A stretch of 64,000 nucleotides of DNA from Chrysomallon squamiferum (GCA_012295275.1 CM022670.1:18166001-18230000); one strand, 5' to 3'; shown: positions 20,333 through 57,540, counted from the stretch's first letter. Program-made: numbers and translations. The notes: generated by a model from the letters alone, not told the origin.

Positions 20333-20373
<41 letters not shown>

Positions 20374-22650
20374 CTGTATGTATGTATGTATGTATGTATC
20401 TACCTACCTACCTCCACACATATCTTACACATATACACATACATGAACACACACACACAAATTTATCTAAAAACTTTTTTTAAATTAAAATTGTTTGCTG
20501 TATGTATATAAAAAAAAATAATAATAATAATATATTCTTAAGGAGCCTCTCATAACTATTATTCTGAAATATATATCTTTATGAAGTAGTTGTAGCTTTC
20601 CAAACATAAGACCAATCAATATATCTTTTATGAATTTGGTTTTATTCATTTACATCATTATATATATCCTGGATTTAATTATCCACTGTAACAATATCTT
20701 ACATCTTTCAAAGAACTCCTGAGACATAATGTTTTATCCAACAACATCTGATCAATCAATCCAGTTCACAGACTCTCTCAGATTCATCTGTGGTAGTTTC
20801 ATTAAATATTGATTTATTCCACATTATTAATTCATTGTTAATTAGATGGGAAACAAGCTGATTTAGAACTTACATACCTGTAAAACCTTTCCTGCACTGA
20901 CAAACGAATTTGTTGATTCCATCTGTACATGTTCCATTGTTTAGACATGGACTGGCAGCACATTCATCTATATTCACTTCACATTGTCTTCCAGAATAAC
21001 CAGCTGAACAATGGCAAGTGAAGGAGTCACCAAACACCTTTTATACAGAAACAAAAAATTAGTCAAAGAATTAATATTATAGAGTTACCTCTGTAAAGCA
21101 AACAAAATCACATTAATAAAGCAGCTGTATAAATTAGTCCTGCTTGATACTCACATTGAGCTATTTCACATCTCACATAAACATTGTTATTTTTCCTGTT
21201 GTATTTTGGGTTTTGTTTTTTTAAAAGATTATAGTTCGTGTTTATAAAAAAAATCTCTTATCACAGTTGATTAAAAATAGCTCTTAAAATAGTTTCTTCA
21301 GATTTTCTCTCTTACCTCAGCATCATGCAAAAACATTTAATGCTTAATAATCATTAATAATAAAATGTTTAGAGATGTTTTTGAATAACTACTTATTCAA
21401 ATGCACACACAATTCAAGTGTCTAAACAACCATCTACATGAAACACAGAGAAACACATACAAACTTTTTCACTCACAAATCAACACAAAGCTGATCAGAA
21501 AAAAATGATAAATCTCAGAATAATATGAACAAGACAATGAAAGGAGTTTCTGTTTAATTAAAAAAACAAAATATACCTGACACATTCCATTGTTTAAACA
21601 AGGTAATGAAATGCAAGGATTCATTGGAGTTTTACACAGTTTGCCAACATAACCTGCAACAATAAATATTTTACTTAAAATATTTTAAAGTGTACCTATG
21701 TTTGGAGCATCACATTATTTTTGTTTAAATTAAAAAAATTAAAAATAAAAGAACAAATTAAGGTTAAAATGCCATCTCATCATGAAAGAAGGAAACATTA
21801 ATTATGTTAATTACATTAAATACAAATCTATAATTGTTGTATTTTACTATTACAATTACTATTATCATTATTAATAATAAATAAGTGTATAATAAATTAT
21901 TACTTCTGTTTAAATACTAAATTGTTTCTATGCAGATTCCTAGACATTAATATAAAATTATCTCACTGCTTACTCACCTGGGACACAGTTACAAAAAAAC
22001 TGACCAGCTCTCAGTGGTGTACATACTCCATACATACATGGATTTGGTTCACAGACAGCGGGATCAACAACTAAACAGAAAATTATTCCACATTCAGTTT
22101 AACCATTTTTGTTTATTTGATAGCTTGTTGTTGTTTTTTTGAGGTTGTCTTTTTATTTTATTTTGTCACACCAATAACCCTCCCTCCCTCAAAAAAATAA
22201 AATAATAATAATAATAAAAAAAGTAAAAACAAAAGAGTTAAATTACATTAGATTTAGATTACCAGAGATTTCTTTAGACATTCAATCTTTATACATGCTT
22301 ACCAAAAGTATAAAATCAATTAAAACATCAAGGAAATGTGAGTTAACATAGTACTGATAAAGAATCTGTTCTATAACTATGTCATCATCATGAAAATGTG
22401 AAATTTAAAAACCTCAGTTGAGTGTTAGTGTCAGGTGAATCTAACACATACTACAACAAAAACACAGATACACAAAACAGTTATATCTAGCTGTATAACC
22501 AAAGCAGTAAACAATGACAATACAATTGCAGTTGTTAATAAAACAACAACAGGAAAACTAAAGATATAATTTTAGTATTTTCAAACATTCAGCCTGCAAT
22601 GTTGTTTTGCAAATAAATATTTTAATATAATAGATTTATTAATACATGTA

Positions 22651-22703
<53 letters not shown>

Positions 22704-24490
22704 GTGTGTTAGCATGTGTGTGTGTGATGTGTGAACAAATATAAACTGAAGCAGTGCAAGCAGTATTATTAGGATGCAAACCTTTTAAAAGCATGCATAA
22801 AATCATACAACTACTGCAATCAACTGTTATAACAAGTTACACTTCATGACTATAATTATTTATACCAACCCCAGTGAATAATTTAAAAATGTTTTTGATC
22901 ATGTCTTACTTCCTGGCACTCAAACCTATTTAAATTAAAAATGGAACTATTTTAATGGCACTTTATTTTTTATAATTAGTAAATTGTAAAAAAGTATGAT
23001 TTCATCACAGTTGTCTTTGAATCATAAAGAATGGTGCATGTACTCAATTACAGAATCCTCAGTTAAGTTATCCAAATTTGTTTTGTTTTTGTTTTTTAAT
23101 AAAAATACACTAATTTTTACTATTTCTGGACATCAGAAAAGAAAAAGAACAGATTTAATAACTAGTCAAAAGACATAATGTTGGAAAAACTTGTACTCCT
23201 AAAGAACAACAGTAAGAAATGACAGTTGATAAGATACACATCAATTTCAATTAAATTAAAATACAAAAACAGAATTAGATCTATTCCATAGTTCAGTTCA
23301 CTTTCCACTCTGTAACGTATTCTAATGTGCTGATGTTAAGTAAAACTGGTGTATATGAGACATACCAAGAGAAGGAATGCTGGTATTAACAGGTGAGAGG
23401 GTAGTAGTTGACTCATGCAGTGTAGTGCTGGACTTGGGCAGTGCCGTTTCGCACCTGAAGCCAGTGAAGTCTGGTTTACAGACACAGAGTGTGTAGGCCA
23501 CGGTGATATTTGCTTTAGCTGGCACGCCATAGCATGTACCACCATTCAAACATGGTTTTGTTTCACATGGATCAGCTGCAATAAAATGCTTGTCATAAAA
23601 TACTTTCATGCATGTGAAAAAAGATTTTTAAAGGAAAAAGGATTATATACGATCTTTTCAAGATAAGAAAACAAAAGTATTTTTGGATTAAGTTGATTTT
23701 TAACTACATACATGAATTCATATATAATAAAGGTTACATTTTATATGTGAAAGCAGTGCAAATTATAATTTTTTCTGATAAAAAAAAAGTGGTCAAATTT
23801 ATTACAGTGACAGTAGTAATAAGGAAAATAGCACAATATCTAAATAAACATAACTATGACAATAAATATAAACATAAAGATAATAATAACTATTATTCAT
23901 GTTGTTGTTGTTGTTGTTACTGTGTTATTGTTATTATTATTATTATCATTATTTTATAGACAAATGAATATATATTAAAATAAATAATTAAAAATGTAAG
24001 ACATTTTTGAGCATACTATTGTGACAGGTGGCATTTGACTCATCCTTCCCATCTGGACAGTCAGATTCCCCATCACACACCCAGCTTGCTAGAATACACT
24101 TGTCAGGATTGTCCGGTGTGCCACAGAATGTCAGATAGAAAGGATTTACAAAATCTGGGCATCTGTCGATAATGGCTAAAACAAAAATATATTTTTTTCT
24201 CTTTTTTAATTTCACCACACATTTTACAGTATAATTATTATACTAAAATAATACAACAAAATATAAAAATAAAGTAATATGTTAAAAGACAAAAATAAAT
24301 TATTTTAGTTATGAATTAACTTAAACTTAGCACAGACCAGCATGATTACAAAATAAATCAAGTATTATTTTAATTTAAAACGTTTGGAGAAAAAAAAAAA
24401 ATAAATAACAATCTTACGTTTTGGTGACTGCTGTGCAAATATAGACGTACATGTTCCAAATGTAAATAATACAATCAACCAAAAGGCCAT
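12937..24490 (-). CDS. Secreted LDLa + ~29 EGF-repeat protein (fibropellin/Notch-ectodomain-like), ~1226 aa
   Basis: 16 coding exons: 24418-24490 (signal peptide [19 protein letters not shown]), 24017-24175 (LDLa, [21 protein letters not shown]), 23366-23575 (EGF + S/T linker), 21978-22070, 21577-21653, 20878-21037, 19978-20127, 19157-19297, 18598-18798, 16771-18336 (14 EGFs), 16232-16462, 15685-15798, 14869-14985, 14362-14496, 13445-13536, 12937-13098. All are GT-AG and phase-compatible, total 3681 nt. The last exon could instead splice at 12951; no TM segment was seen. Confidence 0.88.
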
Positions 24491-29000: not shown

Positions 29001-31180
29001 TATTTTAATTTATTTTAATTTTTTGTTTTAGTTATGGAAAGAATATCACAAAAAAAAAGACTGTGTATATGCTGTTTTAAAGGTATTGTTTATTCTGATA
29101 CATCTGTGTGTATGGTATGGTATGGTATGGTATGGTGTATATTATGATGTACATACGTAAACCAGGCCAACATAAGCCATGGTTCAATACTGCATTGGAG
29201 TCTGTATGCAAAATTATTAAAACTGGTATTGAAAATAATTTTAAATATGTATTAAAAAAAATAGCATCAGCATTTTCCAGTATTAATGTGAATAAAAATA
29301 ATTCTTGATTGCTGAAATAAAATAACAAAACTTGATTATTTCGTGGTGTTTATATTTTTGTATATAAATGAATTTGTAATTTTGTAATTTTAACAGGATG
29401 ATGATTATTGGGATCTTATTACAAAGGCAGAACTTGCTCCCATGGTAAGTTTCTTAATGGTTATGTTAATGCTGTAAATTATAATTCTTACCTGTGATAG
29501 GCAATATATATAAATTAATATGTATTTATCTATTTTGTTTGTGTGTGTGTTTGTGTTTATTTATAATCTTTTCTATTTATACTAAATTTTCTGTATTTAA
29601 ATAAATGCTTGATTATGTAGGATGTAAAACCTCCATTTTAATACTATCATTTTCATTTATTTCTAATAATACTTTTTAAATAGACAGATCTGCTCCTTTC
29701 AGCCTGAGCCAATATTTACTACAAATCTTTAAAATTTTGAAAAATAATATTAAGGAAAAGTTATTTTAACTTTTTGTAACTAAAATGTTAAAAGATGTAT
29801 AAACATACATATGGAGTAATTAAATATTGTAATGTATGTACCATTTCTACTCAGTTTGCATACCCGCTACCCAGGGATAATGGATATGAATTTATGCTGT
29901 CACAAATAGATGGAAATGAGGTTTATTTTACATCACTGGCATTGTATCAGGTATGACTTTTAATTCTTTATTTTTTTCCTCCACTATTTTTAAATAACAT
30001 ACAAACCCACATATTATTGCAAAATAGGTGTGTATTCATGTATGCATGTACTGCATTGACTAAATTACCAATAGTTTCTGTGTTTGAACCACTAGTTTAT
30101 TAAATTCTGTATCTGTAGCTTCAGCAATAATCAGTGTGAATAGTTCACAGAGACCTACTCTCATGTGTTATTAAACAATCCTGTTTAGTAACTAACTGTG
30201 TGGACGTATTGTTAAACCACTAGTTATTAATTTTATTTTTGAAGAATAAGATCATAAATATATAATTTATTATATTGTAATGGAATATATATTTTTCAAT
30301 GCCTTCAATATTTTTTTGTCTTATATTTTCAGAAATTGAAGGAAAGTGCACAACCCTGTCTGACACTGACTCATTATACTGAATTTCTGAAAGATAAAGG
30401 TCTGTAGTTTAATTTTAACTGTTCAAAATAACTGCATGTGAATTCACTGTAACATTAATGTTAGAAGCATGCCAGTTTAGATTTTTCTAGAGGAAAATAA
30501 AAACGAAACATTGATGAGTTTGTTAGTGTGTTTTAAGCAGTGGTATTTATTATAAATATATTTGTAATAATTTTGTAATAATATGAAATAATATTTATTG
30601 ATGTTTAACTGAAAAAACATTTAATGCCATAAATACCTAATAATGTCATTTTATTTTAAAATGTTTTTTATAGGTATTGTTCTGATGAATGGACATTATG
30701 ATAGTAATATTTTAGTAAGTTGTTTTTGTCTGTAAAAATAATATTCTTATTAAACAGTAACAATATTTTTACCATGTTTTCGATCACAAGATATGTTTGT
30801 GGGTTTATTTATAACTGTTATGTGTACGAAACTTTAAATTTAGACATTTGTTTAATTTATATAGTATATAAAAGTGTTTGTTTTATACCCACTACCCAAT
30901 CTGATAGAATTGTTTTGTCTATATCCATCTTCCAGATCTGTTTCAAGTAATAGTTTCAACACTTCAATCAATTTTATTACAGCTTAAGTTATTTTAAATT
31001 CGATACATTTGTTTTCAGAAGCTGCATGAAGCTTTAAGTCTTGTAAACCAGATGACTCTGTATTATGGACGAGGTGCAGTGAAATTCAATTTGGTTCGAC
31101 AGTTCAATCTCACACCAGAGAGTTTCAACTACCAAGACTTGATAGAGAACCTTCAAAATATTCAACTTATGAAATCATAG
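26065..31180 (+). CDS. ATPAF1: ATP synthase mitochondrial F1 complex assembly factor 1 (ATP11 family), 321 aa
   Basis: Exons 26065-26348, 27102-27255, 28545-28607, 29032-29082, 29397-29444, 29855-29950, 30333-30399, 30674-30714, 31019-31180 (966 nt, in frame). Motifs: NPYFIKYKNQLQQLK, KTLDGVMKIELVKDKSAEEIEQLWKEYH, PMFAYPLPRDNGYEF, VYFTSLALYQ, KGIVLMNG, LVRQFNLTPESFNYQDLIE. The N-terminus resembles a basic transit peptide. Confidence 0.93.
26576..26963. mobile_element. Non-autonomous Tc1/mariner (Tigger/pogo-like) MITE in an ATPAF1 intron
   Basis: Degenerate terminal inverted repeats: left CTCTGGTATCTCGACTTACGAGT, right reverse complement CAGTGGAACCTCAACTTACAAGT. TA flanks both sides (26574-75, 26964-65). 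No transposase ORF. Confidence 0.75.
27265..27997. mobile_element. Non-autonomous pogo/Tc2-like MITE in an ATPAF1 intron
   Basis: TIRs CCGTATATACTTGTGTACAAGGCGAC (left) and CTGTATATACTTGTGTATAAGTTGAAC (right, reverse complement), with TA on both sides. Subterminal TGTATAAGTC(G/A)A repeats lie near 27295, 27352 and 27924. Confidence 0.8.
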
Positions 31181-31359
31181 TAATAAATATTTGTAGGAAT
31201 CATCTGAAGAAAACACTTTTAACTTTAGTTTTTTGATTAGTGGATTTCACGTTTGTATTTTTTTTTTTACCTTGGTTTCATTTAGGAATAGCTGAAAAGA
31301 TACACAATGTCTGTTTATTTTTATATAAAATCAAAATAGTTAAAATAAAATAGTAATAC

Positions 31360-31730
31360 TTTCATTAAATAAAATATTCATAAAAAACAACCATTAATGT
31401 TTTTTTTTATGTTTTACAACAATGTTTTACAACCATGAATCACAACTCATAAAAACATAAATATTTTTAACATTTATTTGAAATAAATTCACAACAATTC
31501 TGAACTCTTAAATTATAGTAATTTAAAATCCAGTCCTTCCAACAATAATAATAATCATATATTTTCATTAAATAAAATATTCACAGAAACCTACCATTAA
31601 CGTTTTTTATGCTTTACAACCATGAAGCACAACTCATAAAAACAAGTTTAATAACATTTATTTGAAATAAATTGACAACAATTCAGAATTCTTGAATTAT
31701 AGTAATTTAGAATTTAGTCCTTCCAATAGT
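31360..31730. repeat. ~200-bp tandem duplication between the convergent ATPAF1 and PITHD1 3' ends
   Basis: 31360-31550 and 31563-31730 share TTTCATTAAATAAAATATTCA...ACAACCATGAA.CACAACTCATAAAAACA...ACATTTATTTGAAATAAATT...AGTCCTTCCAA. Confidence 0.85.
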
Positions 31731-31956
31731 AATAATAATAATAATAATGAAAGTAACAACATTAGTGTCAGAAGAAAGAAGATAATCAAGATACATGCTT
31801 ATGATCTTAATACAAAATCCAGTTATGAAAATAGCACTTGATGATATATCACAAAATTGCACCACGTTATTGTTATACCACTAAAAATGATTAATCAACT
31901 GATAGACAAACAAATACTGGTATAACAGTGATTTTGCTGTGTTCTTGTTTGTTTTT

Positions 31957-35752: not shown

Positions 35753-36767
35753 TTCGTATACAGTGTCTAAGAAAAACGACTGACACTCTATAAAATAATC
35801 TTAATTTCGTATCAGATGAAGAAATATCTACTTCGTAGACGATCTAATTTCTAACCACAAACAAAACCATGACGTTTTATAAAAAGTTACGTCCCTTGTT
35901 AATTTACTTCCGTTTGAGGCAACAATCTCTAACTGGGGTATTTCCCAAACGAAACAGAAGGCCAGTAATGAAATTAATTTTAATTCCATGTCATATTTAG
36001 TGTGCAAAGTAAATTAATATTCTAACTGATCCTAATATATGTTGTGTTTGTTTCATAGACTGTGTACAAAATAATATATATTAACAGTAACAATACATTT
36101 GTAATTACGGTACGTGCGCGCGCGAATAAAAAAAATAACATTAGCATGATTAGGGCAACAACACCCGCATTTAAAAAAAGAAAAGCAATGTGTGTATGAT
36201 TAAATATTTTATACGTGGGGGTGTATTGTTTGTTGGTATTAGTTATGGTTTTAAAACTTGTTTGTTTGTAATCACGATGTCTGTTCTAATATAATTATCA
36301 TGTAAAAATCGATTGTTCCATCTACTCAGATAATTCGAGTATTTTCTTTTCGTTTCTTTTTCTTTCTTTCGTCGCTGTTGTTCATTTATAGTACATTATA
36401 AATGATGTTTTGTTCAGACTGACAAATGTTGCGAGCAGAAACCATGGTTCGTGGTATGTATAAAATACGAACACACACGTACACAGATTCACACACAATT
36501 AAATCAATAATAACCGGATCCAAGCAAATTTCATTGCCCCCATTTTATTCCTCTTTAAACCATTCATTAAAAATGTGATAAAACCAGCATCTGTTAATTC
36601 GAAAAACCTTTCTTTTTACTGTTATAAATGTATAAACGTCACGACTAAAAAATGTCGTTAGAAAATAAAACAGGATAGCAAAAATTAAATAAAAATAATA
36701 TATTTAAATTACTTCTTTAATTCACCACAGATACAATTTAATTTGCATTGTTAATCTCTAATACTGT

Positions 36768-37467
36768 TCAGTCGTCGTAATCATAATCGAATGCAATCGG
36801 TACATTTCTTTTTTCTTTTTTCTTTCCACGGCCACATGGTAATCCTTTCTTGCAACGTTCACAAAGATCAGCTCGATGTGGTTTTTTAGGATCATTGTGT
36901 CGTTTCTCCTTTTCAGCCCAGTCGCAAATACATTCCTGCTCACCACATCGTTTGCAGACAAGAGGTTCTACACGATAAGGCAAACAGCTTGTACCACAGT
37001 TTTTGCAGTCCTGATGAAATTTTGGCTGTAAAGTTAAAACTTAGACTGATATATTTGACTCTTAAAATCTCATTTTTAAATATTATTTTGTATTTTGTTT
37101 TATGTATATAAAACAATGGTTTAAAACTACTTTCATATTTTAACTTAATAATAAATTCATTATGGTATGAATAGTAATATTAACAGTAGTAGTAGTGATG
37201 TTACATATACACGTACTTTCAAACTTGCATATAAATAAAGACGTACACACATGCATAAACACACGTTCATGTACACATATATTAATATAATCTCGAAATC
37301 GTTTCACGTTATATATATAAAAAATATATTAAATGATTAAAATAAAATAATTGTAGAATACATACTGTAAGTTTTCCTAAAACTCTTGAACAGTAGACAT
37401 GTGAACTTTCCCATAGTTGTTTGCATTTTCGACAACGAAAAAATCCATAGCACGGCTTAGACGACAT
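36768..37467 (-). CDS. ZAR1-like stand-alone 3CxxC zinc-binding domain protein, copy 1 (119 aa, intact)
   Basis: Exons 37366-37467 and 36768-37025 with a phase-0 GT-AG intron: MSSKPCYGFFRCRKCKQLWESSHVYCSRVLGKLT|PKFHQDCKNCGTSCLPYRVEPLVCKRCGEQECICDWAEKEKRHNDPKKPHRADLCERCKKGLPCGRGKKKEKRNVPIAFDYDYDD. This matches the ZAR1 C-terminal pattern YGxxxCxxC..WES..VxC..QxCxxC....PYRVE...CxxC....CxC...RHxDPKxPHRxDLCxRCK. Confidence 0.88.
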
Positions 37468-37798
37468 TCTTGATCAGTTTTTAAATATCCTTCTTTTCAG
37501 TAGATTCTGTTCGTTAATATGTCAACTGGTCAAATATTCTCGATAATTCTAAAGTTTAAAAAATTCTTAGAATCAAAAATGAAACAACAATTTACCTTAA
37601 AGGTTGTAAACGAACACGCCTTTTCTATGAAAAGTATAAAATAGCCGGTAATGAAAGTAGGTTTTTTCTTTTTCCTTTTTTTATTTACTGATGAAATCAT
37701 TTTCTATTTTCGGCGTTACGTAATACAAACATGACCATTTTACTTTAAGTTACTTTCAAAATGTAAATATTGTTTTCTAGGCTTCTTATTTCATTTAC

Positions 37799-37843
<45 letters not shown>

Positions 37844-38514
37844 AAAAAATCACTCTTTTTTATATATTATCTAACAGAACACGTGTTTTTCTAATGCTAA
37901 GGCTCACATGGGGCCCTTTTGTTTCCAGGCCGAAAGCACAAACCATTGCACCAAACAGTTTTGTTACTCATTGTTTTATTGTTCACCTATCTGATATTCA
38001 AGGGAAATGAATATGAATGTAATACTTTTATAAAACTGCAGTGAGCTGGACAGAGTATAATTTTGCTAGAAAACTGAACTTGATGTTAATAATAATAATA
38101 GATAGATAGATAGATAGATAGATAGACATACAGACACGACAATCGCAAAACACAAAATGAGAAAGGAGAATACAACCAAATATTTGTATTCTGACGAACT
38201 GAGAAACAAATACATGCTGAAATAATAGACAGTATTCATGTTCATATACGTTAATGTATTGTATCTGTCACATCTGAATGTGTCACATTTGAATGTGCTT
38301 AGCAAAAAGAAAATAATTCTTTTTCCATTTTTTTTTTTTTTCTATTCGTGGGGAGGTATTTATTTTTCTTTTGTGGATTTTGTGGGTATCATCGTTTTTC
38401 TTTAATTCGAGTGTATTCCAGTTTAGGAAATGTTATATAATATACTGTAACTCTCAGGACCTTGTAATCTAATTCATATTCAATAATTTCGTGAATATTC
38501 GTGTTACTTTTTTA

Positions 38515-39035
38515 AATTCGTTCTAAAGACTGCTTTTAAGGTCTTTTCATCATCCGAGCTGTTTCCACCATGAATCACTGGCACACGGATGTAACGAAAT
38601 TAGTCACTATTTGGCTCAATACTTTGTTTATGAAACCCGTTTTCTTTTCTGTTTTTTTTTTTCTTTTGTGGAATCACTATTGTTAGTGTGTTCTGAAGAC
38701 CTAGAACCAAGGGAAGCAATTCTGCCTCTTCTTGATCTGGAAGGAGAGAAATAACTCGATGGATAACTCTTTTGGTAGGAATTATTAAAGTATTTGATAC
38801 CGCAAGAATTTAATCGTTTGAAAGTTTGTTTTTAGGAATCGGAGCAAAGAATTCATGATTTGTCATACTGATTACTGGTGGAAAAGTTTCATTCACTGTT
38901 CATTTTCTGACATAGAATGTTCTTTGGCTTTCTTAAGCAAAGCTATTTTGAGGTCATATTCTTCTAAACTCATCCTGAGAGTGGTTACCTTTCTTAAATC
39001 TCGACATGCCTTTTTTACGTCTTCTGTTAACCTCT
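38515..39035 (-). pseudogene. 5'-truncated, frameshifted copy of the 50740-51477 orphan gene
   Basis: Colinear with 50740-51272 but with indels and stops, and no start codon. Confidence 0.8.
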
Positions 39036-39500
39036 GTTAAGATATTTCAATCGCCAGTGTTTTTCATTTATTGCAAATTATCCTTCCCATAATGTTGTTT
39101 TATTCATGCTGGCAAATGCTGGTTCTTGGTATGTATAAAATACGAACATACACACGTTCACAAACACACACAATTAAACCAATAAGCGGTTCCAAGCACA
39201 ATTTTACTGCTCACAGTTTATTCCTCTGTTAAACTATTCATTAATCTGATAAAACCTGCAGCTGTAAATTCCAAAAGCCTATTTTTTTACCCTGTTATGA
39301 GTGTATAAACGTCTCGACTAAAAAACTTCGATAGTAAATAAAACAACAGCAAAAAGCTAATAAAACAAAACAATACATTTAAAATATTCCTTTATTTCAC
39401 CATAGGTAGACTTTAATCTGCAGTTTTAATTTGTACTGTTAATTTGTACAGTTGTTCAATCCTGTTAATCAATAGTGACTGTAATCTGTAGTATGCTGCA

Positions 39501-40150
39501 CTATTTAAGGCCACATGGCAATCCTTTCTTGCAACGTTCACAAAGATCAGCTCGATGTGGTTTTTAGGATCATTGTGTCGTTTCTTCTTTTCAGCCCTGT
39601 CGCAAACAATTCCTGCTCACCACATCGTGTGCAGACAAGAGGTTCTACACGATAAGGCAAACAGCTTGTACCACAGTTTTTGCAGTCCTGGCGATATTTT
39701 GCCTGTAAAGTTAAAACTTAGACTGATATATTTGACTCTTAAAATCTCATTTTTAAATATTATTTTGTATTTTGTTTTATGTATATAAAACAAATAATGG
39801 TTTAAAACTACTTTCATATTTTAACTTAATAATAAATTCATTATGGTATGAATAGTAATATTAACAGTAGTAGTAGTGATGTTACATATACACGTACTTT
39901 CAAACTTGCATATAAATAAAGACGTACACACATGCATAAATACACGTTCATGTACACATATATATATAATATATAATCTCGAAATCGTTTCACGTTATAC
40001 ATATAAAAAATATATTAAATGATTAAAATAAAATAATTGTAGAATACATACTGTAAGTTTTCCGGAAACTCTTGAACAGTAGACATGTGAACTTTCCCAT
40101 AGTTGGTTGCATTTTGAACAACGAAAAAATCCATAGCAAACGAAGGACAT
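39501..40150 (-). pseudogene. ZAR1-like copy 2 (frameshifted as assembled)
   Basis: Exon 40052-40150 is intact (MSFVCYGFFRCSKCNQLWESSHVYCSRVSGKLT). Exon 39501-39702 is 2 nt shorter than in copy 3, from 1-nt deletions near 39608 and in the T-run near 39561. These could be sequencing errors. Confidence 0.7.
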
Positions 40151-40481
40151 TCTTGATCAGTTTTTAAATATCCTTCTTCTCAGTAGATTCTGTTCGTTAA
40201 TATGTCAACTGGTCAAATATTCTCGATAATTCTAAAGTTTAAAAAATTCTTAGAATCAAAAATGAAACAACAATTTACCTTAAAGGTTGTAAACGAACAC
40301 GCCTTTTCTATGAAAAGTATAAAATAGCCGGTAATGAAAGTAGGTTTTTTCTTTTTCCTTTTTTTATTTACTGATGAAATCATTTTCTATTTTCGGCGTT
40401 ACGTAATACAAACATGACCATTTTACTTTAAGTTACTTTCAAAATGTAAATATTGTTTTCTAGGCTTCTTATTTCATTTAC

Positions 40482-40523
<42 letters not shown>

Positions 40524-41189
40524 AAAAATCACTCTTTTTTATATATTATCTAACAGAACACGTGTTTTTCTAATGCTAAGGCTCACATGGGGCCCTTTTG
40601 TTTCCAGGCCGAAAGCACAAACCATTGCACCAAATAGTTTTGTTACTCATTGTTTTATTGTTCACCTATCTGATATTCAAGGGAAATGAATATGAATGTA
40701 ATACTTTTATAAAACTGCAGTGAGCTGGACAGAGTATAATTTTGCTAGAAAACTGAACTTGATGTTAATAATAATAATAATAGATAGATAGATAGATAGA
40801 CATACAGACACGACAATCGCAAAACACAAAATGAGAAAGGAGAATACAACCAAATATTTGTATTCTGTCGAACTGAGAAGCAAATACATGCTGAAATAAT
40901 AGACAGTATTTATGTTCATATACGTTAATGTATTGTATCTGTCACATCTGAATGTGTCACATTTGAATGTGCTTAGCAAAAAGAAAATAATTCTTTTTCC
41001 ATTTTTTTTTGTTTTCTATTCGTGGGGAGGTATTTATTTTTCTTTTGTGGATTTTGTGGGTATCATCGTTTTTCTTTAATTCGAGTGTATTCCAGTTTAG
41101 GAAATGTTATATAATATACTGTAACTCTCAGGACCTTGTAATCTAATTCATATTCAATAATTTCGTGAATATTCGTGTTACTTTTTTAA

Positions 41190-41712
41190 ATTCGTTCTAA
41201 AGACTGCTTTTAAGGTCTTTTCATCATCCGAGCTGTTTCCACCATGAATCACTGGCACACAGGTGTAACGAAATTAGTCACTATTTGGCTCAATACTTTG
41301 TTTATGAAACCCGTTTTTTTTTTGTTTTGTTTTTTCTGTTTTTTGTGGTATCACTATTGCTAGTGTGTTCTGAAGACCTAGAACCAAGGGAAGCAATACT
41401 GCCTCTTCTTGACCTGGAAGGAGAGAAATAACTCGATGGATAACTCTTTTGGTAGGAATTATTAAAATGTTTGATACCACAAGAATTTAATCGTTTGAAA
41501 GTTTGTTTTTAGGAATCGGAGCAAAGAATTCATGATTTGTCATACTGATTACTGGTGGAAAAGTTTCATTCACTGTTCATTTTCTGACATAGAATGTTCT
41601 TTGGCTTTCTTAAGCAAAGCTATTTTGAGGTCAAATTCTTCTAAACTCATCTTGAGAGTGGTTACCTTTTGTTAAATCTCGACATGCCTTTTTTATGTCT
41701 TCTGTTAACCTC
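41190..41712 (-). pseudogene. 5'-truncated copy of the 50740-51477 orphan gene
   Basis: Near-identical to 38515-39035 and homologous to 50740-51272. Confidence 0.8.
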
Positions 41713-42199
41713 TGTTAAGATATTTCAGTCGCCAGTGTTTCACATTTATTGCAAATTATCCTTCCCACAATGTTGTTTTATTCATGCTGGCAAATGCTGC
41801 GAGCAGAAAGCACGGTTCTTGGTATGTATAAAATACGAACATACACACGTACACAAACACTCACACACAATTAAACCTATAAGCGGTTCCAAGCACAATT
41901 TTACTGCTCACAGTTTATTCCTCTGTTAAACCATTCATTAACCTGATAAAACCTGCAGCTGTAAATTCCAAAAGCCTATTTTCTTACCCTGCTATGAGTG
42001 TATAAACGTCTCGACTAAAAAACTTCGATAGTAAATAAAACTGAAAAGCAAAAAGCTAATAAAACAAAACAATAAATTTAAAATATTCCTTTATTTCACC
42101 ATAGGTAGACTTTAATCTGCAGTGTTAATTTGTACTGTTAATTTGTACAGTTGTTCAGTCCTATTAATCAATAGTGACTGTGATCTGTAGTATGCTGCA

Positions 42200-42848
42200 C
42201 TATTTAAGGCAACATGGCAATCCTTTCTTGCAACGTTCACAAAGATCAGCTCGATGTGGTTTTTTAGGATCATTGTGTCGTTTCTTCTTTTCAGCCCTGT
42301 CGCAAATACATTCCTGCTCACCACATCGTGTGCAGACAAGAGGTTCTACACGATAAGGCAAACAGCTTGTACCACAGTTTTTGCAGTCCTGGCGATATTT
42401 TGGCTGTAAAGTTAAAACTTAGACTGATATATTTGACTCTTAAAATCTCATTTTTAAATATTATTTTGTATTTTGTTTTATGTATATAAAACAAATAATG
42501 GTTTAAAACTACTTTCATATTTTAACTTAATAATAAATTCATTATGGTATGAATAGTAATATTAACAGTAGTAGTAGTGATGTTACATATACACGTACTT
42601 TCAAACTTGCATATAAATAAAGACGTACACACATGCATAAATACACGTTCATGTACACATATATATTAATATAATCTCGAAATCGTTTCACGTTATACAT
42701 ATAAAAAATATATTAAATGATTAAAATAAAATAATTGTAGAATACATACTGTAAGTTTTCCGGAAACTCTTGAACAGTAGACATGTGAACTTTCCCATAG
42801 TTGGTTGCATTTTGAACAACGAAAAAATCCATAGCAAACGAAGGACAT
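42200..42848 (-). CDS. ZAR1-like stand-alone 3CxxC zinc-binding domain protein, copy 3 (100 aa, intact)
   Basis: Exons 42750-42848 and 42200-42403: MSFVCYGFFRCSKCNQLWESSHVYCSRVSGKLT|PKYRQDCKNCGTSCLPYRVEPLVCTRCGEQECICDRAEKKKRHNDPKKPHRADLCERCKKGLPCCLK*. An AATAAA lies about 105 nt after the stop. Confidence 0.88.
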
Positions 42849-43180
42849 TCTTGATCAGTTTTTAAATATCCTTCTTCTCAGTAGATTCTGTTCGTTAATA
42901 TGTCAACTGGTCAAATATTCTCGATAATTCTAAAGTTTAAAAAATTCTTAGAATCAAAAATGAAACAACAATTTACCTTAAAGGTTGTAAACGAACACGC
43001 CTTTTCTATGAAAAGTATAAAATAGCCGGTAATGAAAGTAGGTTTTTTCTTTTTCCTTTTTTTATTTACTGATGAAATCATTTTCTATTTTCGGCGTTAC
43101 GTAATACAAACATGACCATTTTACTTTAAGTTACTTTCAAAATGTAAATATTATTTTTCTAGGCTTCTTATTTCATTTAC

Positions 43181-43222
<42 letters not shown>

Positions 43223-43889
43223 AAAAATCACTCTTTTTTATATATTATCTAACAGAACACGTGTTTTTCTAATGCTAAGGCTCACATGGGGCCCTTTTGT
43301 TTCCAGGCCGAAAGCACAAACCATTGCACCAAATAGTTTTGTTACTCATTGTTTTATTGTTCACCTATCTGATATTCAAGGGAAATGAATATGAATGTAA
43401 TACTTTTATAAAACTGCAGTGAGCTGGACAGAGTATAATTTTGCTAGAAAACTGAACTTGATGTTAATAATAATAATAATAGATAGATAGATAGATAGAC
43501 ATACAGACACGACAATCGCAAAACACAAAATGAGAAAGGAGAATACAACCAAATATTTGTATTCTGACGAACTGAGAAGCAAATACATGCTGAAATAATA
43601 GACAGTATTCATGTTCATATACGTTAATGTATTGTATCTGTCACATCTGAATGTGTCACATTTGAATGTGCTTAGCAAAAAGAAAATAATTCTTTTTCCA
43701 TTTTTTTTTTTTTTCTATTCGTGGGGAGGTATTTATTTTTCTTTTGTGGATTTTGTGGGTATCATCGTTTTTCTTTAATTCGAGTGTATTCCAGTTTAGG
43801 AAATGTTATATAATATACTGTAACTCTCAGGACCTTGTAATCTAATTCATATTCAATAATTTCGTGAATATTCGTGTTACTTTTTTAAA

Positions 43890-44010
43890 TTCGTTCTAAA
43901 GACTGCTTTTAAGGTCTTTTCATCAACCGAGCTGTTTCCACCATGAATCACTGGCACACGGATGTAACGAAATTAGTCACTATTTGGCTCAATACTTTGT
44001 TTATGAAACC

Positions 44011-44042
<32 letters not shown>

Positions 44043-44190
44043 GTGGAATCACTATTGTTCGTGTGTTCTGACATAGAAGACCTATTTTAGAACCAAGGGA
44101 CCTTTCTTAAATTCTGCCCTCTTCTTAATCTGGAAGGAGAGAAATAACTCCCGATGGATAACTCTGGTTTTGGTAGGAATTATTAAAGTT
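43890..44190 (-). pseudogene. Truncated, garbled copy of the orphan gene 3' end
   Basis: Homologous to 38515-38790; the sequence becomes interleaved after ~44065. Confidence 0.6.
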
Positions 44191-44433
44191 AAACTATTCA
44201 TTTTGATACAGCTGTAAATTCCAAAAGCCTATTTTTTTACCCTGTTATGAGTGTATAAACGTCTCGACTAAAAAACTTCGATAGTAAATAAAACAACAGC
44301 AAAAGCTAATAAAACAAAACAATACATTTTAAAAATTTAATCTTTAATCTGCAGTTTTAAAGTTTGTTTTTTACAGGAATCCTGTTAATCAAAGAATCTG
44401 TAGTATGATTTGTCATGGCAATCCTTTCTTGAT

Positions 44434-45050
44434 TCACATACTGATTACTCGATGTGGTTTTTTAAGATCAATGTGCCGTTCATCGTCACAATCTTCGCAG
44501 GAAAGGGGTTCTACACGATAAGGCAAACAGCTTGTACCACATTTTTTGCAATCCTGATGGTATTTTCCCTGTAAAGTTAAATGTTAGACTGACATATTTG
44601 ACTAAAAATCTCATTGTTAAATATTATTTATTATTTTGATTTAAGTATATAAAACAAATCATGTCGTAAAACTACTTTCATATTTTAACTATATAATAAA
44701 TAATTCATTATGTACGAGTAGTACTATTAATAGTAGTAGTAGTAGTAAAGTTACATTATATACCTACTTTCAAACTTACATACTAACATACATATAAATA
44801 CAGACATACATACATCAACACATACATACATATACATATATAAAAACATACATATTTCACACAGGTACACGCACACACACACACACAGTAATTTCATCTC
44901 GAAATCACTCACTTTGTATAAAAAAATATGTATTAAATGATTAAAATAAAATAATTGCAAAATACATACTGTACACGGGACACGAGAACTTTCCCATGTG
45001 TTTTTGCATTCTGGACAACGAAAATATCCATAGCACGTCTCAGATGACAT
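44434..45050 (-). CDS. ZAR1-like copy 4, divergent; C-terminus disrupted as assembled
   Basis: Exons 44970-45050 (MSSETCYGYFRCPECKNTWESSRVPCT) and 44434-44568 (GKYHQDCKKCGTSCLPYRVEPLSCEDCDDERHIDLKKPHRVISM*). The CxC segment is missing, and the final DLCxRC falls in the garbled region. Confidence 0.55.
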
Positions 45051-45267
45051 TCTTGATCAGTTTCTAAATATCCTTCTTCTCGGTAGATTCTGTTCATTAA
45101 TGTGTCAAAAAACTAAATATTCTCGACAATTCTGATTTTAAAAGTTCTCAGAAACAAAAATGAAACTACAGTTTACCTTGAAGTGTGTAAACGATAGCCT
45201 AAAACCGGAGTAGGGTTTTTTGTTGTTGTTTTTTATTTACTGATGAAATAATTTTATATTTTCGGCG

Positions 45268-45412
45268 CTTTCTTAAGCATAGCCATCTTGAGATCGAATT
45301 CTTCTAAACTCATACTTAGAGTGTTTCCCCTTCTCAGATCTCGATGTGCCTTTTTCTCTTCTTCTGTTAACCGTCTAGGGTAAATGATGCTCTTGGAGGA
45401 AAATGGGTTAAT
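45268..45412 (-). pseudogene. Internal fragment of the orphan gene (corresponds to ~51166-51311)
   Basis: CTTTCTTAAGCATAGCCATCTTGAGATCGAATTC...AATGGGTTAATGT is nearly identical to the intact gene. Confidence 0.8.
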
Positions 45413-45855
45413 GTATGTATGTATGTATGTATGTATGTATGTATGTATGTATGTATGTATGTATGTGTGTGTATTTATTTATTTATTTCAGTAAGAATTT
45501 CTTTTTACACTGTAAAAATGATATCTCCGTTCTAGGTTTACATATGAAATAAATTAAGTTTCAAAATATTATTTTCTTTTTCATTTTTATTTTTTCGTTG
45601 TTGTTGTTTTCTACCCGAAAAGATACGGGAAGGATCGAGAATAATAATAAATATTCTTCCTGTTATTTTGACTAATTTTGTGCTTTCTTTCTTTTTGACA
45701 GCTCCATAACGCGGTGGTCATCAGTCGCATTGTATCAAGATTATTTTTAGCGATGACGAAAAGTACTGGTCGAAGGAATCGTCTTTCATTAGATATGTGA
45801 TGTTCTTGTTGTTTCTCCTACTGCTGTTGTCGTCGTTGTTGTTCTCATCAACTTC

Positions 45856-45888
<33 letters not shown>

Positions 45889-46292
45889 CGTATGTGTGTA
45901 TGTATGTGTATTTATGTATGTATGTATTAAAAAATGATATATTAACATGCACATTATCATTTAAAATTAACTGATTACAACTTTTGAAAGCACGATATCG
46001 TTTGTTTGGGACTTTTTTCCTTAAATAATGTTGATAAATCTTTAATAAGTAGCTATATTGCTAACGTTATGTATAATATAATATTTTCAATTTATATATA
46101 TATATTCTTTTACAATGTCAAGAAATATTTTATGCCATATATGCATATGATTTAAATTTTATTATATATTTTCTCATATAAGAACCCCTAGGCAAGATAA
46201 GAATATATTTTATATTAGTAATGTAATAATATTGTATGTTGGTGTGTGTGTATATCTATGTGAATAAATGCTATGACCAATGTCTCAGTAAG
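45413..46292 (+). repeat. Direct duplicate of the 56620-57540 segment
   Basis: Colinear from (ATGT)n..TTTATTTCAG.AAGAATTT through GCGGTGGTCATCAGTCGCATTGTATCAAG to AATAAATGCTATG.CCA.TGTCTCA.TAAG. Confidence 0.88.
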
Positions 46293-46355
46293 CAGACACG
46301 CGAACTTTCCCATGTCTTGTTGCATTTTGGACGAAAATATCTATACGACGTCCTT
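46292..46355 (-). pseudogene. ZAR1-like copy 5, exon-1 remnant
   Basis: YRYFRPKCNKTWESSRVC. The ATG and one Cys codon are lost, and the copy is truncated by the duplicated segment. The upstream flank is homologous to 37470-37750. Confidence 0.75.
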
Positions 46356-46898
46356 GAACAGCTTTTAAATATCCTTCTTCTCAGTAGATTCTGTTCATTA
46401 ATCAAATGATTAAATATTCTCGATAATTGTAAGTTAAAAGTTCTTAGAATCAAAAATTAAACGGCAGTTTACTTTGAAGGCTGTATACGAACACGCCTTT
46501 TCTATGAAAATTATGAAATAGCCGAAAACGAAAATAGGTTTTTCAGAGGGTATTCTTTCGAGCAGGGCGGAGGGATTTACTGATGAAATAAGTTTCTATT
46601 ATTAGTCGATTTCACACTATAAACGTGTAACGTAATACAAAGATAATCATTTTACACCATAACCTATTGCATCGTGTAGTTTTATTACACGTAGTTTTAT
46701 TATTCAGCTATCGGACATTCAAAGGAGATGATTCTGCATTTATTATTTTTATAAAACTTCTGTGAGCTGGATAAATTATAATTTTGCTAGGCATTTAAAG
46801 TAGACATCAATAATAATAATTATAATTATAATTATAATAACAATAGAAGTACTGGTAATAATAGTTGTAACAATAGTAGTACTAATTGTTGTTGTTAT

Positions 46899-46932
<34 letters not shown>

Positions 46933-47321
46933 GACAAACAGATACTGCCACAAAATGATAACGGGGTACAGAAACAAATATATTTGTATTCCGACGAATT
47001 CAGAAACAAATGCATGCCGAAATCATAAGCAGTATTCACATTCATATATGTTAATGTATTTCTCACACCTGAATGTGTCACATTTGAACTTGCTTAGCAA
47101 ATAGAAAATAATTTTTCTTTTCTGTTTGTGAGAAAGATTTTCCTTTTTTTACATTTGGATTGTGTGGGTATCATCATTTTTTCTCTTTTGTTTATTTCGA
47201 GTCCATTCCAGTTTAGGAAATGTTATATAATATACTGTAACTCTCAGCACCTCGTAATGTAATTCATATTCAGTAAACTAATTTAGTCGTATGTTTTTGA
47301 TTATTATTATATATATATATA

Positions 47322-47354
<33 letters not shown>

Positions 47355-47360
<6 letters not shown>

Positions 47361-47865
47361 CGTTCTAAAGACTTTCCTTTTAAAGCCCAGCGTGTCTGTT
47401 CGTCAACCGATCTACTTCTACCATGAATCACTGGCCCACGGTTATAAAGAAATGAGCCACTGTTTGGTTCAATACCTTGTTTATCAAACCCGTTTTCTGT
47501 GGAATCGCTACTAATAGAGTATAGTGAAGACTTAGAACTAACGGAATCAATTTTGCCTATACTTCTTGATCTGAAAGGACAGAAATAACGCTGTGGATAA
47601 ACCTTTTGGGGGGAATTATCACAGTATTTAATATTGCAAGAATTTAATGGTTTAATAGCTTTTTATATGATAATTCTGTTTTTAGGAATTGGAGCAAAGA
47701 ATTCACGATTTTTCATACTGATTACTGGTGGAAAAAATTCATTCATTCTTCATTTTCTACACAAATTCGTCTTTGGGTATATAAGACAAAGCTATATTGA
47801 GGTCGAAAGTGCTTCCTCTTCTTAGATTTCGATATGCCTTTTTCTCGTCTTCTTTTAACCGTCTG
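47355..47865 (-). pseudogene. 5'-truncated copy of the orphan gene
   Basis: Homologous to 50740-51272 (e.g. LKEDEKKAYRNLRRGST), with deletions and frameshifts. Confidence 0.8.
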
Positions 47866-48309
47866 TTAAGATATGTCATTCGCCAGTGTTGCTCATTCAT
47901 TTCAAATGTTCTTTTGCTCCTACTTGGGAATGTTGCGAGCAGAAAGCACGTTTCTTGGTGTGTATAAAATACGAACATACACACATACACACATACTCAT
48001 CCAATATGAAATCTATAATAATCGGATCCAGGCACAATTTCTCTGTCCCTACTGTTATCCTGTTTAAACCATTTATTTAAAAATCTGATATAACCTGCAC
48101 CTGTAAATTCCAAACACCTTTCTTTTTTCCTGTCATAAATGTATGAACATCACGACTATAAAACGTCGTTAGTAAATAAAAATGGACAACAAAAAAGCGA
48201 ATGAAACAAAACAATACATTTAAATTATTCCTTTATTTCACCTTAGGTAGACTTTAATCTGCACTGATAATCTGTACCGTTGTTCGACGGTAATCTGTGC
48301 TATTCTGCA

Positions 48310-49108
48310 CTATTTACGGCTGCACGGCAATCCTTTCTTGCAACGTTCGCAGAGATGAGCTCGATGTGGTTTTACATCGCAATCGCAGAACTTGGTGCGA
48401 CAACTTTCGCAGAAATCACGTTCTAGACTATAGGGCGCACAAGTTGCACCACATTTGTCGCATCCCAACATTCTTCTCACTGTAAAGTTAAAATTTAGAC
48501 TGACATATTTGACTACAAATCTCATTTTTAAGTATTATTTTGTATTTTCATTTATATATATATATATATAGATATATATATATATATATATAAAACAAAT
48601 CAAGGCGTAAAAGTACTTTCATATTATAACTTAATAATAAATTCATTATGGTACGAGTAGTACTATTAATAGCAGTAATAGTAGTAAAGTTACATATACA
48701 CATACTTTCAAACTTACATATAACATACATATAAATACAGACATACATGCACCAACATATAGATAAATACTTATATACGTACATACAAGCATACATACAT
48801 GCATATGTACACACTCATATGCACCTACATACACACACATGCACGTCCATACATATACATACATGTATACACATATACATACATACATATACATATACAC
48901 AGTAATTTCATCTCGAAATCGTCTCACTTTATATATCTATATCTATCTATATGTCTATATCTATCTATCTATCTATATATTAAATGTTTAAAGTAAAATA
49001 ATTGCAAAATACATACTACGAGTTCTCTGGCGATTACTGAACAGGCGATAGTTGGATCTGCCCATCAGTGGCTGCAGTTTGTACAACGAAAAATTCCACA
49101 GACGACAT
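48310..49108 (-). pseudogene. ZAR1-like copy 6, diverged pseudogene
   Basis: Exon 1 (49017-49108) has a frameshift after the ATG and an in-frame TGA (CGIFRCTNCSH*WADPTIAC). Exon 2 (48310-48479) reads CDKCGATCAPYSLERDFCESCRTKFCDCDVKPHRAHLCERCKKGLPCSRK but is 1 nt out of phase with the acceptor. Confidence 0.78.
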
Positions 49109-49442
49109 TCTTGATCAGTTTCTAAATATCCTTCTTCTCAGTAGATACTCTCAATTAATATGTCAAAAGATTAAATATTTTCGAAAAGTCTAAGTTGAAA
49201 AGTTCTTAGTAACAAAAATGAAACTACAGTTTACCTGGAAGGGTGCAAACGAACATTCCTTTTCTATGAAAAGTATAAAATAGCCGAAAATTGAATTATT
49301 TTTTTTATTATTATTATTTTTTTTTTTATTGATGCAATCATTTTCTATTTTTGGCCTTTTTACGTAATACAAACATGATCATTTTACTTCAAATTACTTT
49401 TAATATGTAAATATTGTTTTCTAGGCTTCTTATTTCATTTAC

Positions 49443-56454: not shown

Positions 56455-56619
56455 TATATTTGTACGTATGTATGCATGAATGCAAAATTAATTAATGTAT
56501 CCAATACAATTATACACTTTCGCTTCTTACAATATACTCAGTCTGTATAGGTTTTCTACTCTTATTCGTGGATTTTTTATTATTATTATTATTATATGTA
56601 TGTATGTATTTATATATGT

Positions 56620-57540
56620 ATGTATTTATGTATGTATGTATGTATGTATGTATGTATGTATCTATACGTATTTATTTATTTCAGGAAGAATTTCCTTTTA
56701 CATTGTTGAAATAATATCTCCATTCTACGTTTACATATGATATACGTTTCAAAATATATTTTTTTATCCTTTTTTGTTGTTGTTGTTGTTGTTATTGTTT
56801 TTTACCCGTAAACGTACGGGAAGGATCAAAAATAATAATAAATATTCTTCTTTTATTTTAACTAATTTTGTGATTTCTTTTTTTTTGACAGCTTCGTGAC
56901 GCGGTGGTCATCAGTCGCATTGTATCAAGATTATTTTTAGCGATGACGAAAAGAACTGGTCGACGGAATCGTCTTTCATTAGATATGTGATGTTCTTGTT
57001 GTTTCTGCTACTGCTGTTGTCATCATCGTCGTTGTCGTTGTTGTTGTTGTTATCATCCTCATCCTCGTCAACTTCATTTTTATATATACACACACACAGA
57101 CAAACACTGTATGTATGTATATATGTATGTATGCATGTGTATATTTGTATGTATGTATGCATGTGTATATTTGTATGTATGTATGTATGTATAAAATGAT
57201 ATATAGACATACATATTATCATTTAAAATTAACTTATTATAACATTTGAAAACACGATATCGTTTGTTTTGGGGTTTTCCTTAAATAATGTTGATAAATC
57301 TTTAATAAGTGGCTATATTGCTAATGTTATGTATAATATAATATCTTCAATTTATATATATATAGTTTTACAATATCAAGAAATATTTTATGCCAAATAT
57401 GATTTAAATTTTATATATTTTCTCATCTTAGAATCTCTAGGCTAGATGATAATATAGTTTTATATTAGTACTGTAAAAATATATTATGTCATTTAATTTT
57501 TAAACAAATAAATAAATGCTATGTCCAGTGTCTCAATAAG
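56620..57540 (+). repeat. Partner of the 45413-46292 duplicated segment
   Basis: Direct sequence comparison shows colinear similarity over ~900 bp. Confidence 0.88.

Follow-up and report, generated by a model that had tools for sequence, protein, structure and literature searches.

A tandem cluster of short ZAR1-like genes, intact and broken, in Chrysomallon squamiferum

The window analysed here, a 64,000-nucleotide stretch of the Chrysomallon squamiferum genome (GCA_012295275.1, CM022670.1:18166001-18230000), carries on its minus strand five ATG-bearing copies of a ZAR1-like gene (c1 to c5) and one exon-1 remnant, arranged in tandem as a first-pass annotation of this DNA had described. All five ATGs lie where that annotation placed them, at 37467, 40150, 42848, 45050 and 49108, and its claim that intact, damaged and dead copies share one array also holds, in that the spliced domain is intact in c1 (119 aa) and c3 (100 aa) only and the other four of six copies are broken. 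Product lengths of 100-119 aa, which it gave for the spliced proteins generally, fit c1 and c3 (2/6) but not the other copies. With moderate confidence we read the locus as a tandem set of mollusc-type short ZAR1 genes, two intact and four broken, likely derived by unequal crossing-over and with products that likely bind maternal mRNAs in the oocyte. It is one more case of a gene kind that is known but under-described.

Copies, gene structure and repeat unit

Coding exon 1 of c1 (37366..37467, minus strand) has 34 codons, includes the first CxxC and a W, and aligns with positions 2-23 of PF13695 at E 0.0016; coding exon 2, with the stop, occupies 36768..37025. The intervening intron predicted from the sequence (37365-37026) is of 340 nt, phase 0 and GT-AG, and the spliced 119-aa product is intact. 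For c3 (42200..42848; exon 1 42848-42750, exon 2 42403-42200) a GT-AG intron of 346 nt is predicted. The junctions proposed earlier, 37366/37025 and 42750/42403, thus coincide exactly with predicted GT-AG introns.

The remaining copies are damaged in different ways. Exon 1 of c2 (39505..40150; exon 1 40150-40052, exon 2 from 39702) is identical to that of c3, and the two copies differ at 2 of 289 aligned coding bases; exon 2 of c2 has two 1-bp deletions (~39608 and ~39565), one of them in an A-run, giving 84 aa with an aberrant end. In c4 (44416..45050; exon 1 45050-44970, exon 2 from 44568, stop ending 44434) a 21-nt deletion in exon 1 and a scrambled 3' end of exon 2 leave 71 aa. The remnant (46295..46357) has ACG instead of ATG, lacks the upstream TGA, and no exon 2 was detected for it. 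The strongly diverged c5 (48310..49108; exon 1 49108-49017, exon 2 48479-48310) is frameshifted and has an in-frame TGA, with its zinc ligands retained. Two age layers are seen: identity among c1-c3 is ~99% across the non-coding 5' sequence, and c4, the remnant and c5 are ~67-82% identical to c1-c3. The array shows the pattern of a birth-and-death family, in that its paralogues, some intact and some pseudogenised, differ in age and the dead ones were formerly under constraint; in this count the lesions of c2 and c4 may be assembly errors.

Although the gene had been described as two-exon, a 29-nt micro-exon is predicted upstream of exon 1 in c1 (37596..37624), c2 (40279-40307), c3 (42977-43005), the remnant (46473-46501) and c5 (49235-49263), all on the minus strand, with conserved flanks consisting of an acceptor-like pyrimidine tract plus AG and a donor-like GTAAA, followed by a predicted intron of ~89 nt. 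The donor alone is retained at the c4 site. Given this predicted exon, the gene is probably not two-exon. The in-frame TGA reported 9 nt 5' of the ATG is present in all five ATG copies (5/5); it had been taken to show that there is no N-terminal extension, and we rejected it as sufficient proof because an AG directly before the ATG, which lacks a pyrimidine tract, could bypass it. The conclusion itself stands on other grounds: the ATG lies 5-6 residues ahead of the domain, likewise in Patella, Mizuhopecten and Haliotis, and because this position is conserved the c1 and c3 proteins probably have no extension.

The repeat unit, of ~2.7 kb, combines the ZAR exons with broken pieces of what is likely a separate orphan gene, ORF X; it starts inside this neighbouring gene and carries dead pieces of it. 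ORF X is intact only at 51477-50740 (minus strand, 245 aa), the source of the remnants found in each unit. By tblastn and DNA alignment, minus-strand remnants were located at 38507..39030 and 41181..41708 (both 5'-truncated and frameshifted), at 43880..44149 (a 3' remnant) and at 47360..47864 (5'-truncated, with a stop and deletions), and tblastn placed a short fragment on the same strand, aa 58-106 and 90% identical to the intact copy, at 45266..45412. The dead remnants differ by 2.3-5.6% between units. Because the repeat unit includes these remnants, the array reaches ~51.5 kb; of the previously proposed span, 36420..49300, the start (~36.4 kb) is upheld and the end is not.

An exact 11-mer offset map showed that 44060..44465 is a mosaic of short patches, in which 11-18-bp stretches alternate between offsets of ~2200-2250 and ~2860-2900, whereas a control stretch does not. 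This segment is likely an assembly consensus chimera, judging from the patch pattern, and because it mixes two repeat registers the copy number and the damage to c4 may be assembly artefacts. It also favours a reading that we consider unlikely, namely that one working mini-ZAR1 sits in an unstable or collapsed repeat, in which the young copies and much of the damage come down to redundant duplication or to consensus errors of long reads. The A-run deletion in c2, the near identity of c2 and c3, and the ORF X remnants, which diverge as much as the core exons of c1 and c3 (4.3%), point the same way. However, c4, the remnant and c5 are too diverged from c1-c3 for consensus error, and c1 and c3 are distinct loci since 8 core residues are replaced between them and their 3' flanks differ by 21%. 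Moreover, c5 kept 21 of 26 family-conserved positions as against 16 of 48 others (p 2e-4), a selective retention that needs a long coding history; because conserved positions were preferentially kept, c5 was a working gene before it broke.

The ZAR1-type domain and its relatives

Searched alone against PF13695, exon 2 scored above the gathering cut-off of 23 in both intact copies (c1, E 3e-5, 24.9 bits; c3, E 1.1e-5, 26.4 bits), and the two exons of c3 matched the solved ZAR1 domain (PDB 9JKO) at E 4.4e-11 and 0.0013. At the level of sequence comparison the match is far above chance expectation, and it bears out the earlier assignment to the C-terminal zinc-binding domain of ZAR1. At 11 Cys and 2 His positions, c3 has the residue found in at least 80% of the 34 invertebrate homologues compared, and none of the 8 replacements between c1 and c3 falls on these residues. 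After splicing, c1 and c3 share 45% identity with the domain of human ZAR1 and 59-63% with a protein of Gigantopelta; the best Atlas score of c3 exon 2, 0.84, was uninformative. A weak exon 1 score to PF17180 zf-3CxxC_2 (E 3e-4 to 0.018) lies below the family cut-off and exon 2 gave no match to that family, whose proteins we take to be ZCCHC24-like. A word-seeded search with c1 exon 2 among proteins of 46-149 aa found no match, a limit of sensitivity given that other searches returned many.

The zinc-binding domain is common to these proteins and to vertebrate ZAR1 and ZAR1L (ZAR2), but the vertebrate proteins have a long disordered N-terminus where only 5-6 residues precede the domain here, and a C-terminal tail of vertebrate type that is missing here; vertebrates have ZAR1 and ZAR2, whereas the present gene is multi-copy. 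If the human protein is 424 aa long, its residue R397 corresponds to a Lys, also basic, in our copies. R397 is an RNA-binding residue of human ZAR1 according to the available part of PMC12799850.

Invertebrate models named 'zygote arrest protein 1-like' are domain-only like c1 and c3 and occur in molluscs, annelids and echinoderms, with lengths of 89-135 aa, in most of them a Met that lies 1-20 residues ahead of the first motif, and often several per species; examples are Littorina XP_070212470, Patella XP_050407858/9, Batillaria BaRGS_029234-029236 and Mizuhopecten OWF39100. Four that were compared are 51-63% identical to the c1/c3 type. In a search restricted to 18-240 aa, 43 named invertebrate homologues were picked, two of which lacked the start motif, and of the 41 counted, 36 have at most 35 residues ahead of the domain (median 8), the median length being 103 aa. 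A search unrestricted in length found vertebrate-type motifs, by regular expression, in 21 of 27 matches of at least 200 aa. Short ZAR1-like models, often multi-copy, occur in gastropods, bivalves, a tubeworm and a brittle star; no cephalopod entry was present among the named matches. Eight mollusc species (Batillaria, Patella, Mytilus, Haliotis rufescens, Lymnaea, Mizuhopecten, Littorina and Mactra) have at least two entries on apparently the same contig or with consecutive gene numbers, an assignment that at chromosome scale does not establish tandem order and in which some pairs may be one gene annotated twice. The tree was built without c2, the remnant and RTP sequences, leaving out P0003 and P0140, which have no domain start, and splitting P0081 into its two domains. 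Most of it lacks resolution, with stars on 17 of 56 inner branches and a bootstrap that had not settled; the starred clades include those of the vertebrate rows (99/97) and of the within-species pairs of Patella and H. rufescens.

Judging from these entries, mollusc genome annotations ordinarily show ZAR1-like genes as short and multi-copy, which makes the cluster unexceptional, and the short amplified form cannot be taken as a peculiarity of the locus, as first proposed. The first-pass annotation had itself listed such an ordinary form among the outcomes that would overturn its proposal, and at the level of databases that outcome applies. This ordinariness is one of database entries and not of published description: no paper on an invertebrate ZAR1 family was found in the partly accessible literature, subscription journals and supplements lying outside the search, and none on zygote arrest in octopus or on a crystal structure of the ZAR1 zinc-binding domain. 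Compared with the invertebrate models, the present locus differs in packing six copies into 13 kb together with a passenger ORF, in flanks that were homogenised recently and in the highly diverged c5.

Selection and alternative readings

Between c1 and c3, the core exons show 12 differences in 276 bases (4.3%) and the adjacent non-coding DNA 11 in 1363 (p 1e-4; p 0.045 when only the intron is compared); of the 12 exonic differences, 11 lie in replaced codons. Exon 1 of c5 differs from that of c3 by 14:9:4 at codon positions 1:2:3 (p 0.028; 0.068 against c1). Together with the recurrence of tandem copies in molluscs, these values favour positively selected, RTP4 3CxxC-like effectors in an RNA-binding arms race (antiviral, anti-transposon or in gamete conflict), a reading we regard as improbable. 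RTP4 has in common with the c1/c3 type a 3CxxC zinc-finger domain, for which nucleic-acid binding would be a shared property and which determines the antiviral effect of RTP4, and the RTP family and ZAR1 are grouped as a 3CXXC zinc-finger subfamily; in RTP4, however, the domain is followed by a disordered region and then by a transmembrane segment, neither of which is present in c1 or c3 (RTP4 as described in the accessible text of PMC12431671). Path-counted, the c1/c3 core gives pN 0.044 and pS 0.041 (ratio ~1.1), with no signal of purifying selection and so no sign of present constraint on either copy; exon 2 against c5 gives dN/dS of 0.6-0.8, with no Fisher test of dN against dS significant. 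The low non-coding divergence may reflect a recent conversion tract, and the p values of these several tests are uncorrected. We rejected positive selection as established: c5 hints at it, but pN is close to pS between c1 and c3. No named match among 93 (18-240 aa), or among 20 named in other searches, is called an RTP, the names being ZAR1-like, 3CxxC-domain or hypothetical; the tree contains no RTP row, which leaves the RTP comparison indirect. The antiviral or anti-transposon role suggested at first gains no direct support from these names or from the ovary bias of a mollusc zar1 in the available part of PMC13023353.

It is improbable that ORF X serves as a long N-terminal exon, disordered in part, for a full-length or chimeric ZAR1-like gene of ~345 aa, with the downstream copies as 5'-truncated duplicates. 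In each unit ORF X does precede the ZAR exons on the 5' side, the AlphaFold model of ORF X has a helical N-half and a disordered Ser/Arg-rich C-half (mean pLDDT 56.8, low confidence), and a GT at the end of ORF X is phase-compatible with the AG immediately preceding the ATG; 2 of 36 hypothetical paths from intact ORF X to the c3 exons are open, as are 5 of 42 in the c5 unit, of 341-350 aa and with their end inside the domain's second half. But the five c5 paths share one phase and do not follow the ZAR frame through exon 1, so they need only a roughly 1-in-3 phase match; it is in the ZAR frame that the conserved residues of c5 exon 1 are kept, and for the same reason c5 was rejected as a gene read in another frame. 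The AG lacks a pyrimidine tract and the ATG position is shared with homologues, as noted above. Among proteins of 134-429 aa the sole homologue of ORF X is P0001 (277 aa, 55% identity, E 6e-76), which has no ZAR domain, and 0 of 73 ZAR-domain matches resemble ORF X. ORF X matched no Pfam family, its low-confidence model had no Foldseek match in the PDB at E<=0.001, and its best Atlas score, 0.80, was uninformative.

Function and wider meaning

Under our preferred reading, as mollusc-type short ZAR1 genes, the cluster was likely amplified by unequal crossing-over, and its mosaic structure would come from repeated unequal exchange and gene conversion. Extra copies appear to retain the zinc ligands while other positions drift (exon 2 of c5 kept 10 of 10 ligands and 19 of 45 other positions) and to be lost later. 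By homology, the intact products would bind mRNA through the zinc domain and have a role in the oocyte. They are basic (pI 9.1, 21-27 Lys+Arg), and a protein of 100-119 aa would fold around zinc like vertebrate ZAR1, with the domain binding 3' UTRs. As far as the consulted parts of these papers go, vertebrate ZAR1 and ZAR2 use the zinc-finger domain at their C-terminus to bind mRNA (PMC6868374), while MARDO, the mammalian mRNA-storage condensate, is built by the disordered region at the N-terminus (PMC12799850). Without that region the short proteins are predicted to be small adaptors, repressing or storing mRNA via partner proteins. The ovary-biased expression of a snail zar1, cited above, was the sole mollusc expression datum found, and the literature examined, accessible in part, yielded no invertebrate member with a tested function.

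ZAR1 and ZAR2 are treated as vertebrate genes in the literature examined, with no non-vertebrate homologue according to PMC2842238, whereas the databases hold dozens of domain-only invertebrate homologues. A speculative view, which we think rather unlikely, is that domain-only mini-ZAR1 is ancestral in animals and became in molluscs a repeatedly tandem-amplified, fast-evolving and so far unrecognised family of small RNA-binding proteins in germline or antiviral conflict, that vertebrates later added the MARDO-making disordered N-terminus, and that the locus is a snapshot of this turnover, perhaps including a chimera of ORF X and c5 that acquires a new N-terminus by exon capture. The locus is one more amplified example and by itself no demonstration of a new system. 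In a ZAR1 that naturally lacks the disordered region, RNA binding would be uncoupled from condensate formation, and such a protein would be a test of whether vertebrates assembled their mRNA-storage function on top of a small, older module for RNA binding.

Array structure and surroundings

The tandem array of ZAR1-like genes is genuine, and two of its six copies are intact. Five copies (c1 to c5) lie on the minus strand with ATGs at 37467, 40150, 42848, 45050 and 49108, respectively, and each has an in-frame TGA 9 nt before its ATG, as the first-pass annotation had described; the sixth is a remnant (46357-46295) of exon 1 only, lacking both the ATG and the upstream TGA. The array had been read as spliced genes of 100-119 aa throughout, which is correct for two copies: splicing at conserved GT-AG sites yields a complete domain in c1 (119 aa) and c3 (100 aa), and the others are damaged, c2 giving 84 aa owing to two 1-bp deletions, c4 giving 71 aa, and c5 stopping after 24 aa, its domain frame interrupted by frameshifts and by a TGA. 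That TGA (49066-49064, minus strand) is a lone nonsense codon amid otherwise kept conserved exon-1 residues; it may be a recent mutation to a stop, a mistake in the assembly or a codon recoded at the RNA level, three cases that look alike in sequence.

The assignment to ZAR1 holds. Exon 2 passes the cut-off of PF13695, the Pfam ZAR1-type zinc-binding domain, exon 1 aligns to profile positions 2-23, and both exons match the solved ZAR1 domain (9JKO). The c1 and c3 proteins are basic (pI 9.1) and 45% identical to the human ZAR1 domain.

The repeat unit is about 2.7 kb long and starts inside another gene, a 245-aa open reading frame that we call ORF X (51477-50740, minus strand). Upstream of exon 1, a micro-exon of 29 nt, flanked by good splice signals and followed by an intron of about 89 nt, is predicted, and the ZAR-like gene therefore probably has 5' non-coding exons. 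At 44060-44465 exact 11-18-bp patches from two repeat registers are interleaved, whereas a control unit stays in a single register; this stretch looks like a consensus chimera, which makes both the copy count and the damage to c4 uncertain.

The closest named homologues are molluscan, and the genome texture might suggest a cephalopod. The window is AT-rich (23-38% GC per 2 kb), with abundant microsatellites throughout, and contains animal genes split by introns. These are a rhodopsin-family GPCR (exons at 5216-~7680, plus strand; PF00001, E 6e-17), a large protein encoded by multiple exons (~14300-24250, minus strand; a frame of 533 codons is open at 16763-18364), in which numerous EGF repeats are joined by an LDL-receptor class A module, and a PITH-domain gene (exon at 35797-35531, minus strand; PF06201, E 3e-10) about 1 kb downstream of the c1 stop and on the same strand. 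A 204-bp inverted repeat at 31356-31743, with arms 80% identical and almost no spacer, is hairpin or MITE-like. Within the array, a segment of about 880 bp (45411-46292) is a 79%-identical copy of 56604-57540, 11 kb away; ORFs of this segment had no Pfam match, and it is possibly a mobile or duplicated element.

Divergence among the copies

Over 1 kb upstream, c1-c3 are 99.2-99.6% identical, and the 3' flank of c1 diverges by about 21%, the mosaic that unequal exchange or conversion would be expected to leave. Between c1 and c3, 12 of 276 core-exon bases differ, with 8 replacements, compared with 11 of 1363 in non-coding sequence (p 1e-4). However, path-counted pN (0.044) is about equal to pS (0.041), and dead pieces of ORF X also diverge from each other by 2.3-5.6%.

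The damaged c5 retains 21 of 26 family-conserved positions against 16 of 48 others (p 2e-4). Its exon-1 differences are scarce at third positions (14:9:4 against c3, p 0.028; against c1, p 0.068), and no such codon-position bias was found in exon 2. These results support the proposed birth-and-death array, with a retained zinc scaffold; positive selection is no more than hinted at. That the copies are neutral or assembly debris is a minority reading, which we consider unlikely.

The single intact ORF X stands at the array's 5' end, and five pieces of it, truncated or frameshifted, are interspersed among the ZAR copies. Searches against Pfam and by fold gave no match, and the predicted structure has a helical N-terminal half and a disordered C-terminal half. 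Its sole homologue among proteins of 134-429 aa, P0001, has 277 aa, 55% identity and no ZAR domain (cluster P0001/P0002, 277 aa, 55-57%). ORF X is thus an orphan ORF with one homologue cluster.

Candidate role of the short product

Vertebrate ZAR1/2 use their C-terminal zinc domain to bind mRNA (PMC6868374). Xenopus ZAR2, which binds the TCS element, acts as a translational repressor when it is tethered (PMC3736149), and the mammalian mRNA-storage condensate MARDO is built by the N-terminal disordered region (PMC12799850). Expression of zar1 in a snail is biased towards the ovary (PMC13023353), and in a clam a ZAR1-like transcript falls under heat stress with other reproduction genes (PMC10869415), the available portion of each giving no gene length. 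By analogy, we somewhat favour a c1/c3-type product that acts as a small adaptor: its zinc domain would bind mRNA in oocytes, and by itself it would not scaffold a condensate. A conflict effector like RTP4 (PMC12431671) is considerably less plausible.

The upstream TGA had been taken to exclude an N-terminal extension; it is present, but with an AG directly ahead of the ATG it is insufficient to decide the matter. Fusion of ORF X to the ZAR exons, which would give such an extension, is nevertheless the most doubtful reading. Among 42 ways of splicing ORF X through the c5 unit, 5 keep the frame open as far as the last zinc motif (341-350 aa), and 2 of 36 hypothetical paths to c3 exons are open. 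All five c5 paths, however, share one phase that reads exon 1 outside the ZAR frame, every piece of ORF X that precedes c1-c3 is dead, none of 73 ZAR-domain homologues resembles ORF X, and the ATG lies 5-6 residues ahead of the domain, as in homologues.

The short form in other animals

The case made in the first-pass annotation depended on treating the short, amplified form as exceptional, but this form is ordinary among named invertebrate homologues. A profile search restricted to 18-240 aa gave 93 matches; from the named invertebrate proteins we picked 43. The start of the domain could be located in 41 of them, 36 of which have at most 35 residues ahead of it (across the 41, median 8; median length 103 aa). 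Without length restriction there were 73 matches (names looked up for 20), and 21 of the 27 of at least 200 aa carry vertebrate-type motifs by regex. ZAR1-type entries have consecutive gene numbers in Batillaria (029234-029236) and consecutive accessions in Patella; Mytilus, Haliotis rufescens, Lymnaea, Mizuhopecten, Littorina and Mactra each have 2-3 entries on a same-length contig, some of which may represent a single gene annotated more than once, and chromosome-scale contigs are no proof of adjacency. No cephalopod entries occur among the named homologues.

In a poorly resolved tree (59 rows, 96 columns), stars mark a clade of the vertebrate rows as well as the pairs from Patella and from H. 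rufescens; the window copies group weakly with Gigantopelta. Eight unnamed or MMETSP homologues also have the ZAR1-type domain (P0064, P0065, P0066, P0070, P0072, P0075, P0103, P0144), some with C2H2 fingers; four form a separate starred clade, and the domain may be older than animals. A ZAR1-type protein labelled Salmonella (P0128) comes from a 375-bp contig and is likely contamination.

A literature search, outside which lay subscription journals and supplements that may bear on the point, found no paper on an invertebrate ZAR1 family; PMC2842238 reports that ZAR2 lacks a homologue outside vertebrates, PMC8396567 gives two sawfly transcripts the ZAR name, and PMC4254928 and PMC10420382 contribute nothing further. 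The locus is a further instance of a kind already present in database annotation but apparently little studied.
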